Shown: one piece after another, positions 32,808-38,698 of the stretch
Layout of the letters: each line of letters opens with the position of its first letter
How positions within the stretch are numbered: the first letter of the stretch is position 1
DNA from: an uncultured Alphaproteobacteria bacterium
Lineage (GTDB): Bacteria; Pseudomonadota; Alphaproteobacteria; HIMB59; GCA-002718135
Assembly: GCA_902574475.1 (NCBI GenBank)
Contig: CACGNZ010000001.1
Location: 61,416 to 125,415, forward strand
DNA: 64,000 nucleotides
Reading direction: 5' to 3'
Program-made: the position numbers and the translations under genes
The notes under the pieces: generated by a model
What the model was told of the DNA's origin: nothing
The model's database searches: none
Seen by the model: only the letters and a program-made list of their open reading frames with translations

Positions 32808-33521
32808 TTATTTTTTCTCTAATTGTCTAAAAAAAATTGTTGTGAATTCATCCATGAATGTTTCTAAGGATATAAAGTATTTTGATAAGTCGTTTGAGAT
32901 TTTATTGTATGCAACTACAGCAGGTATAGCTACAAAAAGGCCTAATGCAGTTGCAAAAAGAGCCTCTGCAATTCCTGGAGCGACTACTGCTAAATTTGTA
33001 TTTTGTGCAATTGCAATAGATTTAAAACTGTTCATTATGCCCCAAACTGTTCCAAATAGTCCTATAAACGGTGCAGTTGATCCAGCAGTTGCGAGAAAGG
33101 TTAAATTTCTTTCTACATTTTCACTTTCCTTATTAAAAACAACTGTCATTGATCTCATCATTCTATCTTTTAAAGAGTTTATATCTGAAGTGTCATCTTC
33201 AAATTGATTTTTACTTTTTTTCCATTCTAAAATTGCAGCACAAAATAATTTTGACTTTGGATCTGTCTGATTAAAGTTTAAAGTTTCATACAAATCTTCA
33301 AATGAATTTCCAGACCAAAAAATATCTTCAAATTCTTTTTCAAGTTTTTTTAATTGTCTGATTCTCAAAATTTTTGAAATTATTACATTCCAGGAATATA
33401 AAGAAGCTAAGATTAAAATTATAATTACCGATTTAACAATAAGGTCAGCTTGCATAAATAAAGCAAGCATTGAAAAATCTGGAGCTTCAGTTGATAAATT
33501 TGTACTATTAATATCTGCCAT
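32808..33521 (-). CDS. tolQ: TolQ
   Basis: FLATAGSTAPFIGLFGTVWGIM, VAPGIAEALFATALGLFVAIPAV. Confidence 0.97.
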   Translation of the reverse strand: MADINSTNLSTEAPDFSMLALFMQADLIVKSVIIILILASLYSWNVIISKILRIRQLKKLEKEFEDIFWSGNSFEDLYETLNFNQTDPKSKLFCAAILEWKKSKNQFEDDTSDINSLKDRMMRSMTVVFNKESENVERNLTFLATAGSTAPFIGLFGTVWGIMNSFKSIAIAQNTNLAVVAPGIAEALFATALGLFVAIPAVVAYNKISNDLSKYFISLETFMDEFTTIFFRQLEKK

Positions 33522-33526
33522 AACAA

Positions 33527-33820
33527 TTATTTTTTAATTTTTTCGAGATCACTACTATGAACCATCACCCAAAATCCTGGTCTATTTTTTTCACATAATG
33601 CTATGACTGGTGTCTTGCCCTCTTCTTTGGCAAGCTTTGCAGTATCATCCCACAAGCTAATTGCTGTATGTTTTGCTCTTAATTTACATTCTATAAAAAG
33701 ATCTTCATGAATTACATCAGCTCGTGTAACTTTACCATTTCCTCCACTCAAAGGTGTCCTTTTCCCATTAAAATAATTTGCAACATCTCTTTCCCTTTTT
33801 TTCCAAGCTTTATCAGGCAT
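33527..33820 (-). CDS. Hjc-like PD-(D/E)xK nuclease, putative Holliday junction resolvase
   Basis: 97 aa with E10-R11...R21-x3-S25-G26...D35...E44-x-K46; RBS AAGGA 7 nt before the ATG; sits between yebC and tolQ. Confidence 0.75.
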   Translation of the reverse strand: MPDKAWKKRERDVANYFNGKRTPLSGGNGKVTRADVIHEDLFIECKLRAKHTAISLWDDTAKLAKEEGKTPVIALCEKNRPGFWVMVHSSDLEKIKK

Positions 33821-33834
33821 CTATATTCCTTTCA

Positions 33835-34584
33835 TTATGCTGTAAGTGAAGTTAGCACACTATCATCAACCTCAAAATTTGATGATACTACTTGAACGTC
33901 GTCGTTGTCTTCTAAAACTTCTAATAATTTAAATAGTTTGTCTGCTGTATCTTTTCCAATATTTATATTATTTTTACTTTTCCAAATTAAATTTGCAGAG
34001 TTAGTCTGACCATACTGTTGAATTAATTTATCATTGAGTTCATGCAAATCATTTTGATTACAGTATATTGAATATTCTGTATCATTAATCTCATAATCTT
34101 CACTATTATTTTCAATTAGAAATTCTAAAAGTTGATCTTCTTTTACTAAACTTTTATCAAGAGTGATATTACCAAATCTATCGAAACCAAAACTAACACT
34201 TCCTGTTTCACCCAAATTACCACCATATTTACTAAAAGAAGATCTGATTTCAGCAGCTGTTCTATTTTTATTATTTGTAAGTGCTTCAACTATTATTGCT
34301 ATACCTTCAGGGCCGTATCCTTCATATCTTACTTCTTCATAATTACTATCAGGATCATTTCCTTGACCTTTTTTAATTGCCCTCTCAATATTATCTTTAG
34401 GCATATTTAGAGACTTGGCCGACGAAATTGCAGATCTTAATCTAATATTACTCTCAATATCTTCGCCTCCTACTTTAACAGCAACAGAAATTTCTCTTCC
34501 AAGTCTTGAGAAAACTTTTGCTCTTTTTTTATCTTGAGCACCTTTACGATGCATAATATTTTTAAATTTCGAGTGCCCTGCCAT
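33835..34584 (-). CDS. yebC: YebC/PmpR family protein
   Basis: MAGHSKFKNIMHRKG.QD.KR, YEGYGP.G, TNNKNRT, GETGSV, LEDNDDVQ.V..N. Confidence 0.97.
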   Translation of the reverse strand: MAGHSKFKNIMHRKGAQDKKRAKVFSRLGREISVAVKVGGEDIESNIRLRSAISSAKSLNMPKDNIERAIKKGQGNDPDSNYEEVRYEGYGPEGIAIIVEALTNNKNRTAAEIRSSFSKYGGNLGETGSVSFGFDRFGNITLDKSLVKEDQLLEFLIENNSEDYEINDTEYSIYCNQNDLHELNDKLIQQYGQTNSANLIWKSKNNINIGKDTADKLFKLLEVLEDNDDVQVVSSNFEVDDSVLTSLTA

Positions 34585-34663: not shown

Positions 34664-35455
34664 TTATGTCTCTTGAATTGGGGTGATATTTTTAGCTAAA
34701 CCAGTATTAGTATCAATCTCTATTAAAGCCCCGCATACTGTTATGTTTTCAGTAGCAGGTGTAAATCTACCTTCTGCCCTGTACCCCTTAACAAATCCAT
34801 GTATTGGATTATTTATATCAAAACCAATTATTGAATTATAATCACCTGACATCCCCACGTCTGTTTGATAGGCTGTACCTTTAGGTAAAATAACACTGTC
34901 TGCCGTTGGCACATGAGTATGTGTGCCTAAAACTGCCGTAACTTGTCCATCAACATAATATCCAAATGCCTTTTTTTCAGAAGTTGCTTCACCATGCATA
35001 TCAATAATTATCGCATCACATGTACTGCCTAACTTCTCTTTTTGAAGAAATTCAATTATGCCTTTAAAGGGATCATCTAATGATAAATTCATAAATAATC
35101 TGAGCATTACTTGTACTACTATAATTTTTTTTCCATTTAAAAGTTCAAGCTTATAATATCCTTTTCCAGGAACCCCATCAGGATAATTCAAAGCTCTGAT
35201 TATTTTTGGATTTTCTTCAATATAAGAAAGCATATCTCTTTGATCCCATGCATGATTCCCAAGTGTAAGTAGATCAATTCCGCTAGAAAATAATTCTTCT
35301 GCATCCTTTTTTGAAAGTCCATAACCAGAAGTAGCATTCTCACCATTAGCAATAATCATGTCTATATTATATTTAGATTTGAGTGTTGGGATAATTTCTT
35401 TAATTTTTTTTCGTGACGCCTTACCGACAATATCACCTATAAAAAGAATTTTCAT
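34664..35455 (-). CDS. TIGR00282/YmdB family metallophosphoesterase
   Basis: GDIVG, NGEN, LGNH, DMHGEATSEK, GTHTHVPTAD, TDVGM.G. Confidence 0.94.
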   Translation of the reverse strand: MKILFIGDIVGKASRKKIKEIIPTLKSKYNIDMIIANGENATSGYGLSKKDAEELFSSGIDLLTLGNHAWDQRDMLSYIEENPKIIRALNYPDGVPGKGYYKLELLNGKKIIVVQVMLRLFMNLSLDDPFKGIIEFLQKEKLGSTCDAIIIDMHGEATSEKKAFGYYVDGQVTAVLGTHTHVPTADSVILPKGTAYQTDVGMSGDYNSIIGFDINNPIHGFVKGYRAEGRFTPATENITVCGALIEIDTNTGLAKNITPIQET

Positions 35456-36033
35456 TGAAAACTATATAAATTTTTTTCAGTAATAACATAATCCACTTTA
35501 AAATCAAATTTGTCTATGGGTATGTAATCTAACTTTTGATCTTCATATGCATAGGCTACAGAGATGAATCTGTGATTAATTTTATTTAAATAAGCAAATG
35601 TCCTGTCATAATAACCTCCACCATAACCTAATCTATTTCCCTTCTTATCAAAAGCTAAACAAGGTACAAAAATTAATTCAGGATTTAAAATTTTATTTTT
35701 ATTTTGAGGCTCTGATATATTCATATGTCCTTTTACAAAATTCTCTTCACTCTTAAATTGCTTAAAGATTAAATGACTATTTTTTTTTTCAATTACAGGG
35801 AGACATAAAATTTTATTTTTAATAAAGATAAGATTGTTAAGCTCTCTCGTATTTATCTCAGAATTTATAGAAATAAAACTAGAAACTATATTAATTTCTT
35901 GAAAATTAATTTTTTCAAAAAGCTTATTAAACAAAGTTAAAGCAAAATGAGATGGTTTATTATTAAAAATCTTATCTCTTATTATTTTTTGTTTTTTTCT
36001 GATAATTGATTTTTCATCTTTAATATTATTCAT
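35452..36033 (-). CDS. 5-formyltetrahydrofolate cyclo-ligase (YgfA family)
   Basis: VPCLAFD..GNRLGYGGGYYDRT, EI.T, D.VITE. Confidence 0.95.
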   Translation of the reverse strand: MNNIKDEKSIIRKKQKIIRDKIFNNKPSHFALTLFNKLFEKINFQEINIVSSFISINSEINTRELNNLIFIKNKILCLPVIEKKNSHLIFKQFKSEENFVKGHMNISEPQNKNKILNPELIFVPCLAFDKKGNRLGYGGGYYDRTFAYLNKINHRFISVAYAYEDQKLDYIPIDKFDFKVDYVITEKNLYSFQ

Positions 36034-36445
36034 AATAAGAATTCTTAATTATATTAATTAAACCTTCTACCTTTTTATTTATTTCATCAAATTCTTGATC
36101 TAATTTCAATTTTTCATCTTCTAAAATTTTTTTTTCATTTTGTAGTTTTAGTATTTTGTCTTTAAGTTCTAAATTGTTCTTTAGATATTCTTGTTTCTTG
36201 GTATCATTTACTTCTGAACTTCTTTTTATATTTAATTTTTCTGAAAGCTCTGCTTGAAGCTCAATAGAGAGAAGTGATAACAATATAGTATCACTTATTT
36301 TTCCATTTGAATATTTTGGATTTTGTAATTTATCATCAATTTTTTCATTAATTAAATTTATTGAATCTATTATTTTTTTTTCATCTTTTTTTTCATATTC
36401 TAATGATATTTCTCTATTTAAAATTTTTGTCTTATAAAAAGGCAT
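36026..36445 (-). CDS. zapA: Cell division protein ZapA-like
   Basis: KILNREISL....DEKKI..SINLIN.KI...ILLSLLSIEL plus coiled coil; canonical position upstream of the cyclo-ligase gene. Confidence 0.7.
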   Translation of the reverse strand: MPFYKTKILNREISLEYEKKDEKKIIDSINLINEKIDDKLQNPKYSNGKISDTILLSLLSIELQAELSEKLNIKRSSEVNDTKKQEYLKNNLELKDKILKLQNEKKILEDEKLKLDQEFDEINKKVEGLINIIKNSYYE

Positions 36446-36721: not shown

Positions 36722-38698
36722 TTGAATAATTTAAATAATATCAAAAATCTAAGACAATTATCAAATTGTATTAGATTTTTATCAATGGATGCAGTGGAAA
36801 AAGCAAAATCTGGTCATCCTGGTATGCCTATGGGTATGGCGGACATAGCAACAGTTCTTTACAAAAATCATTTAAAGTTTGATCCGAATGATCCGGAATG
36901 GATTGATAGAGATAGATTAATTATTTCAAATGGGCATGGCTCAATGCTTTTATACTCTTGTTTGTATCTAACAGGATATAAAGACATTGACATAAATCAA
37001 ATTAAAAATTTTAGACAATTGCATAATAAAACTGCAGGTCACCCAGAATACGGAAGTGCACAAGGAATAGAAACAACTACCGGGCCTTTGTCTCAAGGTT
37101 TAGCAAATGCAGTTGGAATGGCTTTAGCAGAAAAAAAATTATCAAATAATTATGGAGAAAAATTAGTCGATCATTACACTTATGTTTTTGCTGGAGATGG
37201 ATGCTTAATGGAAGGTTTAAGTCATGAAGCGTGTAGTCTCGCAGGACATTTAAAATTAAATAAGCTTATTATGTTTTTTGATAATAATTCTATTTCCATA
37301 GATGGATCAACAGATCTTTCAGTTTCAGACAATGTGAAAAAAAGATTTGAAGCTTATAATTGGAATATAATTGAAATAGATGGTCATAAATATGAGGAAA
37401 TTGATCAAGCTATAACTCAAGCAAAAAAAAATAATGCTCCAACAATTATATCTTGTAAAACTAAAATTGGTTTTGGCTCTCCAAACAAAGAGTGTTCAGC
37501 TTCATCACATGGTTCACCTCTTGGTGAGGATGAAATTAGTTTAACAAGAAAAAAATTAGAATGGAATTATTCGCCGTTTGAAATTCCAGATGATTTATTA
37601 CGTGAGTGGAGAAGTTTCTATAAAAGAAATGAAGAATCAAGAAATTCATGGTTATCAAAAAATAAAGAATTAATTGAAAGTAAAAATTTTAAAGATAGTT
37701 ATTATCAAAAAATTAATTCACAACTTCCAGAAAAACTAGCTGAATTAAAATCTGAACACTTTAAAAACAAAACAAATTGTGCTTCAAGAAAATCGAGTGA
37801 GCTGACGCTAAATTTAATTTCAAACTATCAAAAAAATCTTATTGGTGGATCTGCTGATCTTACTGGATCAAATAACACTAAGGCAAAAGATATGAATGTA
37901 ATTACATCTGATAAATTTAATGGAAATTATATTCATTATGGCATCAGAGAACATGGAATGGCTGGAGTAATGAATGGTATTGCTTTGCATAAAGGTTTAA
38001 TTCCATACGGAGGAACGTTTTTGGTGTTTACCGATTATTGCAGACCTTCAATTAGGTTATCAGCTATTATGAATATACCAGTTATTTATGTAATGACACA
38101 TGACTCAATAGGATTAGGAGAAGATGGACCAACCCATCAACCTGTTGAACATCTTGCATCCTTAAGAGCTATACCAAATTTAACAGTAATTAGGCCTTGT
38201 GATATTATTGAAACTATAGAAGCATGGGAATGTGCAATCAACAATACTGGACCAACAATCTTAGTTTTAACAAGACAAAATCTACCGATGTTACAAAAAG
38301 ATAATCGCAAAGAAAATCTTGTAAATAAAGGTGCTTATAAAATAAGAGATTTTAAAGAATATGATGCAACAATTTTATCTTCTGGTTCTGAAGTTGAGAT
38401 TGCTTGCTCTGCATCAAATAAACTTTTTGAAAGCAATAATTTAAAGATAAGAGTTGTAAGCATATCTTCATTTGAATTGTTTGAGAAAAATGATGATGCT
38501 TATAAAAATAAAATTTTAGGAAATAAACCTATTTTTGCTATTGAGGCTGGAGTAATAAATGGTTGGGAAAAATATATTAAAAATGAAAATTTTGTTGGCA
38601 TGTCAACTTTTGGTGAAAGTGGTCCATACAAAGATTTATATAAGCACTTTAAGATAACAGATGATTACTTAATTGAAAAAATAATTAAAAGTTTATAA
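36722..38698 (+). CDS. tkt: Transketolase
   Basis: SGHPGMPMG, SNGHGSML, GDGCLMEG, YGIREHGM, THDSIGLGEDGPTHQP; TTG start. Confidence 0.98.
   Translation: MNNLNNIKNLRQLSNCIRFLSMDAVEKAKSGHPGMPMGMADIATVLYKNHLKFDPNDPEWIDRDRLIISNGHGSMLLYSCLYLTGYKDIDINQIKNFRQLHNKTAGHPEYGSAQGIETTTGPLSQGLANAVGMALAEKKLSNNYGEKLVDHYTYVFAGDGCLMEGLSHEACSLAGHLKLNKLIMFFDNNSISIDGSTDLSVSDNVKKRFEAYNWNIIEIDGHKYEEIDQAITQAKKNNAPTIISCKTKIGFGSPNKECSASSHGSPLGEDEISLTRKKLEWNYSPFEIPDDLLREWRSFYKRNEESRNSWLSKNKELIESKNFKDSYYQKINSQLPEKLAELKSEHFKNKTNCASRKSSELTLNLISNYQKNLIGGSADLTGSNNTKAKDMNVITSDKFNGNYIHYGIREHGMAGVMNGIALHKGLIPYGGTFLVFTDYCRPSIRLSAIMNIPVIYVMTHDSIGLGEDGPTHQPVEHLASLRAIPNLTVIRPCDIIETIEAWECAINNTGPTILVLTRQNLPMLQKDNRKENLVNKGAYKIRDFKEYDATILSSGSEVEIACSASNKLFESNNLKIRVVSISSFELFEKNDDAYKNKILGNKPIFAIEAGVINGWEKYIKNENFVGMSTFGESGPYKDLYKHFKITDDYLIEKIIKSL

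Follow-up and report, generated by a model that had tools for sequence, protein, structure and literature searches.

The archaeal Holliday-junction resolvases Hjc and Hje (PF01870; PDB 1GEF, 2WCW, 4TKK) work without RuvAB. Like SIRV2 ORF121, they are small basic nucleases with the residue order E...R-x-P-x-S-G...D...E-x-K, and the 97-residue protein described here, which we call X, resembles them in this. X differs from archaeal Hjc in its motif I, where the flanking G/P and G(F/Y) are missing, in having no Pfam Hjc match and in its bacterial host. Among the phage enzymes, Hjc_15-6 of Thermus phage Tth15-6 (PDB 7BGS/7BNX) is an Hjc-type PD-(D/E)xK protein for which junction cleavage is reported in the available excerpt of PMC8805305. 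The site proposed in this excerpt, E10-D40-E53-K55, matches E10-D35-E44-K46 of X, whereas X has 97 residues, is 13% identical in the structural alignment and is a fixed gene of a chromosomal operon, not a phage gene.

The replacement of RuvC by a non-homologous resolvase across a whole bacterial lineage, as proposed for X, is known from RecU in the Firmicutes and Mollicutes. The RecU organisms, however, keep RuvAB and have recU away from ruvAB (PMC3403352, in excerpt), whereas the genomes with X have lost ruvA, ruvB and ruvC alike, and their substitute lies in the vacated slot. In E. coli, stand-alone phage-type resolvases cover the loss of RuvABC, as is proposed for X: RusA substitutes for RuvABC if RecG is present (PMC5055574, in excerpt), and the RuvC of phage bIL67 raises the UV survival of delta-ruvABC cells from 0.0016 to 0.60 (PMC3864405, in excerpt). 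The folds of RusA and bIL67 RuvC differ from that of X, and both are cryptic or plasmid-borne in the laboratory and not a fixed natural replacement.

The original prediction knew of no description of such a cellular replacement, and a literature search, which was thin on subscription papers, found no account of one. The loss of ruvABC in P. ubique was reportedly described by Viklund in 2012. RuvAB is missing in less than 2% of the sequenced bacteria, mostly parasites, and a table in the available part of PMC3403352 has no RuvA, RuvB, RuvC or RecU for Pelagibacter HTCC7211, HTCC1062 and HIMB114, so the absence of RuvABC in Pelagibacter is itself published; the link of yebC to ruvC is documented in the same part. 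HIMB59 has been placed apart from SAR11 (PMC3815206, PMC3937112, both in excerpt). The excerpt of PMC3815206 mentions neither ruv nor a resolvase, and the lost repair genes discussed in the accessible main text of PMC12374537 and PMC4053759 do not include them. The literature searched, as far as its text was available, gave no answer to how SAR11 cells lacking RuvABC resolve junctions.

The window, i.e. the whole stretch of 64,000 nucleotides that was analysed, comes from a genome that is 84% complete. X is encoded on the minus strand by a 97-aa ORF (33527-33820) and is predicted to be a PD-(D/E)xK-type nuclease of the PHROG 2002 type and a stand-alone Holliday-junction resolvase. The upstream flank of the slot is yebC (33835-34584, minus; TIGR01033/NF001030 over cut-off) and the downstream flank is tolQ (32808-33521, minus; TIGR02796 over cut-off), the first gene of tolQRAB-pal. 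A 14-nt spacer follows the yebC stop (33821-33834, minus) and a 5-nt spacer separates X from tolQ (33522-33526, minus). The coordinates and the TIGRFAM matches thus agree with the lone ORF, spacers and flanks that had been claimed, except that the AAGGA site, which resembles a ribosome-binding site, lies 6 nt and not 7 nt before the ATG of X. No second ORF of 80 aa or more was found between yebC and tolQ in the window, and since the spacer before tolQ has only 5 nt, remnants of ruvA, ruvB or ybgC have no room there. Further upstream, a zapA-like gene (E 0.059 only), a 5-formyl-THF cyclo-ligase gene and ymdB (34664-36445, minus) form a conserved context. This context is common to ruvCAB-bearing Alphaproteobacteria and therefore the yebC-tolQ locus is orthologous. 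X has a GC of 0.35 and a GC3 of 0.20, its neighbours 0.29-0.36 and 0.15-0.19, and because of this similar composition X looks long resident. A promoter scan was uninformative (29 sites versus 25.9 +/- 5.9 in shuffles; no terminator). Twenty RNA runs contain 13-17% of the sampled words. In RNA-run contigs of relatives, which have no DNA control and are not evidence of expression, X was fully covered in 3/4 runs, and some of these contigs span yebC-X or X-tolQ.

The ancestral order of the locus was taken to be yebC-ruvC-ruvA-ruvB-(ybgC)-tolQ. In 23 of the 25 RuvB-bearing loci mapped, yebC was followed by ruvC-ruvA-ruvB and then mostly by ybgC-tolQ, also in the low-GC family f10. The start of tolQ is 3.3 kb from the start of yebC in f10, where ruvCAB is kept, versus 1.06 kb in the window.

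X was found in three families: f1, the family of the window; f2, its sister family; and f188, which belongs to a separate order and has genomes that are 54-89% complete. RuvB (TIGR00635) was detected in 0/187 genomes of f1 and f2, including 22 that are at least 90% complete, one a single contig at 99%, and in 0/11 genomes of f188, together 0/198. In the class-wide sample, RuvB was present in 375/401 Alphaproteobacteria. A profile search of the same class found X in 5/401 genomes, all of them within f1, f2 or f188. These two tallies, and the 127/131 given below for family f116, each contain one genome flagged as unpublished (G225, G665). RuvC was found in 0/116 plus 0/5 genomes of the X-bearing families, RuvA over the cut-off in 0/6 and RusA in 0/5. 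The in-place replacement of RuvABC and the mutual exclusivity of X and ruvABC are both borne out by these counts, with X in the vacated slot and in 165 of the 198 genomes that have no RuvB.

Several weaker matches were followed and rejected. RuvB_N matches in the genome of the window were weak, partial and inside other long ORFs (best 25 bits), and tblastn with a real RuvB gave only short matches of the size of a P-loop. RuvA matches at E about 1e-3 in three genomes were pieces of 31-48 residues, far below the cut-off. RadA matches lay in ORFs of about 800 aa, which are presumably Lon protease, and did not extend beyond the C-terminal portion of the model.

Branch migration had been assigned to RecG/RadA or another helicase. 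RecA and RecG were each present in 5/5 X-bearing genomes, RecG over the cut-off in two and with 577-637 of 659 bits in the others, whereas RadA/Sms was over the cut-off in 0/5 (G000, G079, G116, G174, G586). RadA is thus not supported in this role, which leaves RecG as the remaining candidate motor.

X matched PHROG 2002, annotated as Holliday junction resolvase, with E 2.5e-10 (residues 3-94 of X on positions 16-112 of a 130-position profile); the PHROG names are annotations. Pfam and NCBIfam profile searches with X gave no match, and neither X nor its profile found a match among the PDB sequences. The conservation of the family was analysed in an alignment of 95 homologs, selected from the best 120 of 376 and the best 150 of 898 matches. 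All residues named in the original prediction were present in X and conserved in the homologs: E10 in 95, R11 in 88, R21 in 95, S25 and G26 in 94 each, D35 and E44 in 94 each and K46 in 95. The predicted catalytic residues are E10, D35, E44 and K46, and the conserved S25-G26 pair is assigned to a loop. X is basic, with a pI of 9.5.

The motifs I-III of Hjc were taken as quoted in the excerpt of PMC8805305. Motif II, hDhhXp, is present as A34-D35-V-I-H-E and motif III, hhh(E/D/Q)hK, as L41-F-I-E44-C-K46. Of motif I, (G/P)X4EX9-11G(F/Y), only the Glu is kept: E10 is invariant, whereas Ala stands at position 5 and Lys comes after G19. Compared with the phage signature E-SD-EVK (PMC8805305, in excerpt), Ser directly precedes the position of Asp35 in 58/95 homologs, and X itself has AD. 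The Pfam Hjc profile (PF01870) did not match X and matched 1/95 homologs with E 0.028. Similarly, PDDEXK_15 (PF24608) gave no match to X but matched 11/95 homologs at E<=0.1 (best 2e-4), and its cut-off was passed by the slot proteins of families f55 and f209, which are described below. The profile comparison of X with the Hjc-like f209 slot family gave a probability of 97 and E 8e-11, whereas the comparison with SIRV2 ORF121, a Pfam Hjc member, was weak (E 0.003, probability 10.6); it paired R21, S25-G26 and E44-x-K46 of X, and D35 was not cleanly aligned. Comparisons of one alignment (A1) with the f55 slot protein (E 0.02) and of another (A2) with SIRV2 ORF121 (E 0.03) were also weak. Identities of X as RuvC (PF02075) or RusA (PF05866) were rejected: for RuvC there was no Pfam or NCBIfam match and the X profile against a RuvC gave E 0.45, and the RusA profile found no match in X. 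In a homolog of 318 aa (P0263), an X-like domain is joined to a C-terminal part that by eye resembles a family-4 uracil-DNA glycosylase.

The AlphaFold model of X had a pLDDT of 90 and a pTM of 0.74. When it was compared with the PDB by Foldseek, the best three rows were archaeal Hjc, but with E about 0.7 and an rmsd of 13-15 Å, so that the single-chain model was not superposed as a whole. VIA against 48,161 chains gave Hjc_15-6 as the best row (Z 3.1, rmsd 3.2 Å, 63 residues aligned), a Z score that ties with unrelated rows. Among predicted viral structures, X reached a TM of 0.80 to an unnamed protein and, to another that bears the name Holliday junction resolvase, a TM of 0.59 (E 0.006). 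Eighteen natural homologs of 154-182 aa (P0126, P0133, P0142 and 15 others) contain the C-terminal helix-strand-strand-helix unit as a tandem duplicate. The model of P0126 had longer strands (pLDDT 92, pTM 0.87) and Hjc_15-6 was again the best VIA row, with Z 7.7, rmsd 3.4 Å and 116 residues; the tool's level is 8, and this was a second look, made on a homolog rather than on X. Of the 11 VIA rows listed for P0126, 8 were Hjc and the other 3 viral nucleases. Foldseek with P0126 gave no significant match, and Hjc first appeared at rank 41.

Although these scores are weak, the profile and structure rows point to PD-(D/E)xK and Hjc and not to RuvC, in line with the fold that had been proposed. X is predicted to have an Hjc-like PD-(D/E)xK fold; Mg2+ would be bound by D35, E44 and E10, and the scissile phosphate would be contacted by K46. 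Since the model of the lone chain fits Hjc poorly overall and the duplicated homologs give a fuller Hjc-like sheet, X probably completes its sheet with the C-terminal unit of a partner, i.e. as an intertwined dimer. The label "Hjc-type" agrees with motifs II and III and, weakly, with the fold rows; as to membership it does not hold, because X is of the PHROG 2002 type and outside Pfam Hjc. Judged from its motifs and its model, X nevertheless probably works like Hjc.

Close relatives of X were found in marine phages. Two viral scans gave 26 loci, of which 20 carry homologs 71-81% identical to X; these belong to the same PHROG 2002 family, whose putative function comes from annotation. In 18/20, terL lies within 1.2 kb downstream, and the other two loci end within 313 nt; terS is upstream in 14/20. 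Neither yebC nor tolQ was near the gene in any of the 20 loci, so the phage copies are placed in a terS-X-terL packaging module, whereas the cellular copy is placed in the yebC-tolQ slot. More distant members were found in other phages, such as a Bacteroides phage and the replication module of L347, and the top Atlas cluster was 93% viral among its 15 members with a known phylum.

The X gene had been called probably phage-derived. The close phage relatives and the wide viral range agree with this as the likely direction of the transfer. In two X trees of about 100 columns, one of them a quick version, f188 was split from f1 and f2 by phage copies with moderate support, while monophyly of the cellular copies was not rejected (AU p 0.087); the phage-to-cell direction therefore rests on the wider phage distribution of the family. 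X may instead have entered the common ancestor of f1, f2 and f188 once, from a mobile source, and the terS-X-terL copies may have been captured from hosts later, which would alter only the direction and not the function. We regard this order of events as possible but rather unlikely. It would fit the single clade of the three hosts in the composition-stripped tree (SH-aLRT 100), the monophyly test just mentioned and the mean identities, by which the phage copies are nearer to f1 (71%) than f2 (67%) or f188 (63%) is. Against it, both X trees part f188 from f1 and f2, the distant relatives occur in other phages and the Atlas cluster is viral, and X is absent from all other Alphaproteobacteria sampled. 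Because of the wider viral range and this absence, a phage origin of X is likely.

The fixation of X was evident from its distribution. X was present in 165/198 genomes of the three families and in 22/22 of those at least 90% complete: in f1 in 98/116 (11/11 at this completeness), in f2 in 60/71 (11/11) and in f188 in 7/11. The order yebC-X-tolQ is more than chance: it was found in 157 of 160 genome loci, many of which are the same genome twice; of the three exceptions, one was without X and two were one extra copy without tolQ. In f188 the order was found in 6/7 genomes, the seventh stopping at a contig edge, and in metagenome contigs in 74/80, where the remaining six also stop at a contig edge. 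Compared with the window, dN/dS was about 0.025 for X (70/80 pairs usable), 0.088 for yebC and 0.037 for tolQ. Between f1 and f2, X is 68-75% identical, YebC 52-58% and TolQ 45-51%. X is thus not patchy and is under strong purifying selection, as had been expected of a replacement.

Some loci of these families showed further changes. In L160 (G034:C6:22422-22700), from the same genus as the window, X is 72% identical to that of the window, TolQ 84% and YebC 76%. This X groups with the X of another genus (L153; support 97-99), which suggests an in-place allele swap. In L103/L161 (G073:C14:22929-23216), a second ymdB-yebC-X copy without tolQ is on the same contig and its X runs into a 301-aa ORF; this is possibly an amplification or an assembly chimera. 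The transketolase of the window (36722-38698) is 70% identical to that of the distant family f44 (L382, L396) and 51-55% to those of f2 and f188, which suggests horizontal transfer.

The same slot was analysed in other families without RuvB. The class sample contained 26 RuvB-less genomes. The yebC gene was looked for in 22 of them and in 19 genomes with RuvB, and 11 yebC loci from RuvB-less genomes and 9 from RuvB-bearing genomes were then examined. In f116 (L201-L203, L221-L250), yebC is followed by a phage-type RuvC gene (PHROG 1770, E 1e-35, no Pfam RuvC match), which was present in 127/131 genomes and lay between yebC and tolQ in 30/30 loci examined. In f209 (L352-L356), of the same order, the f116 gene was found in 0/20 genomes, and a gene for an Hjc-like PDDEXK_15 protein of 123-127 aa occupied the slot in 5/5 loci; this protein is 53% identical to gp22 of Roseobacter phage CRP-810 and only 30% to X. 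In f154 (L206-L207), the slot contains another PHROG 1770 gene, which shares 35% identity with the f116 gene and precedes ybgC-tolQ (2/2). In f55 (L204-L205), the slot gene encodes a 168-aa PDDEXK_15 protein that is 44% identical to Pseudomonas jumbo-phage proteins (2/2 with yebC found). The slot proteins of f209 and f55 belong to PHROG 244, whose label "RusA-like" is an annotation on proteins that match PDDEXK_15. RuvB was found in 0/72 genomes of f116 and f209, and in the four replaced families f116, f209, f154 and f55 RuvC was found in 0/5 and RuvA over the cut-off in 0/5 genomes. ybgC is retained in f154 and some f116 genomes. In f55 (L204, L205, L377) the ybgC-tolQRAB-pal block is missing from the locus and the slot gene is followed by tilS-ftsH-glmM. 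From GC, tree position and the table of PMC3403352 we infer that f116 and f209 are Pelagibacterales (SAR11). The different phage-type slot genes in these other small-genome marine lineages are likely separate swaps.

Counter-cases were found as well. In the closed 1.5-Mb genomes of f132 (L208, L209), about 2 kb without long ORFs lie between yebC and ybgC. The tol genes of f132 are decayed, and its ruvCAB was lost through erosion with no replacement. In G483 (L211; 99% complete), an ordinary ruvC follows yebC with no adjoining ruvAB and no RuvB match, and in G287 a slot of near-normal length contains ruvC-like sequence.

X might have a role elsewhere, in RNA processing, defence or non-catalytic DNA binding, with an incidental position in the operon and with the junctions handled by RecG alone or by another protein, e.g. 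YqgF. Proteins with a PD-(D/E)xK fold are functionally diverse (PMC8805305, in excerpt), and the fold scores of X and P0126 are weak. A phage-type, resolvase-annotated gene was, however, found directly after yebC in 7/7 free-living-type RuvB-less families (f1, f2, f188, f116, f209, f154, f55), a placement that chance would not produce; the closed f132 genomes with their decayed slot are the exception to this pattern. The single copy and near-universal presence of X also speak against a defence gene. We consider such a role very unlikely.

X might also act on forks, flaps and D-loops, either to remove branches, as phage enzymes do ahead of packaging, or to restart replication, and not as a strict four-way-junction resolvase. 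The position of the phage copies between terS and terL would suit this, and promiscuity is typically higher in viral resolvases than in the cellular ones (PMC3864405, in excerpt). The same excerpt calls promiscuity deleterious for the cellular counterparts, yet X is fixed and its dN/dS is low. In addition, X stands exactly in the place of ruvCAB, and in four other families the slot was filled again by genes annotated as resolvases, whose families have two different folds. A general branched-DNA nuclease is therefore an unlikely reading. We conclude that a phage-type PD-(D/E)xK gene has taken the place of ruvCAB and become fixed there, as one of several such replacements, and that X is probably the resolvase of the cell.

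The number of RuvABC losses was estimated from host trees of 8 proteins and 40 genomes, from which compositionally biased sites had been removed; the unstripped run served as a control. Seven of the 47 loci were left out because markers were absent or incomplete, and Tkt and Gap were excluded for signs of transfer. The markers were few and from one locus, and the tree searches were quick. The stripping was defined by low-GC versus other families and is thus biased against grouping the low-GC families. In the stripped tree, f1, f2 and f188 were joined (SH-aLRT 100), as were f116 and f209 (99.5), and f55 was placed elsewhere. The ruvCAB-keeping f10 was the sister of f154 in both trees (SH-aLRT 94 stripped, 98 unstripped). 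A clade of the X-bearing families with f116 and f209 was rejected on the unstripped data only (AU p 0.037; stripped 0.37), and one of the X-bearing families with f154 on the stripped data only (AU p 0.015; unstripped 0.26).

If ruvAB had been lost once, in the ancestor of all streamlined marine Alphaproteobacteria, only the slot gene would have been swapped afterwards. The unstripped tree, which puts the low-GC families together, and the stripped AU p of 0.37 are consistent with this course, but f10 is placed inside the group. Moreover, the AU test rejected a single clade of all replaced families (p 0.002 with stripped and 0.0009 with unstripped data), a clade of f154 and f116 was rejected in both data sets (p <1e-40), and the published phylogenies set HIMB59 apart from SAR11 (PMC3815206, in excerpt). 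A single loss is therefore quite improbable. The trees support at least two losses of RuvABC, and three are likely. On balance we favour, by a small measure, the broader view that streamlined ocean Alphaproteobacteria repeatedly discarded RuvABC, each time with a different phage resolvase after yebC, in at least five acquisitions of two unrelated folds and with at least two, probably three, independent losses. The five acquisitions are PHROG 2002 in the HIMB59-type clade, a phage RuvC gained once in f116 and once more in f154, and two Hjc-like families in f209 and f55.

As to the mechanism, X would likely be a phage-derived stand-alone Holliday-junction resolvase that finishes RecA-dependent recombination and fork repair. 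RecG would probably move the junction, and a homodimer of X would make paired, Mg2+-dependent nicks across the four-way junction. A phage resolvase independent of RuvAB may have displaced ruvC in place, under the expression of the yebC operon, and ruvAB and ybgC may have been deleted afterwards, which would have left the locus about 2.2 kb shorter. A similar course, each time with another phage enzyme, is likely for the other streamlined lineages. If ruvC was displaced first and ruvAB became dispensable only thereafter, this would account for the constant position of the newcomer after yebC and for the retention of ybgC in f154 and part of the f116 genomes; among the loci examined, no intermediate was seen in which ruvAB still follows a phage resolvase.

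If this is true, the missing resolvase of SAR11-type cells is named, and a phage resolvase with RecG, but with no RuvAB and no RadA, is the normal ending of recombination in these lineages. The Hjc fold would gain a 97-residue version that acts as an intertwined dimer, and the slot genes are named, small and easily purified resolvase candidates. If one operon position was refilled again and again by phage enzymes of unrelated kinds, genome streamlining would offer a clear natural case of convergent gene displacement in place, and of phage genes turned into core housekeeping genes. SAR11 recombines promiscuously (PMC12374537, in excerpt), and the slot resolvases may bear on the divergence tolerance of recombination in these lineages.
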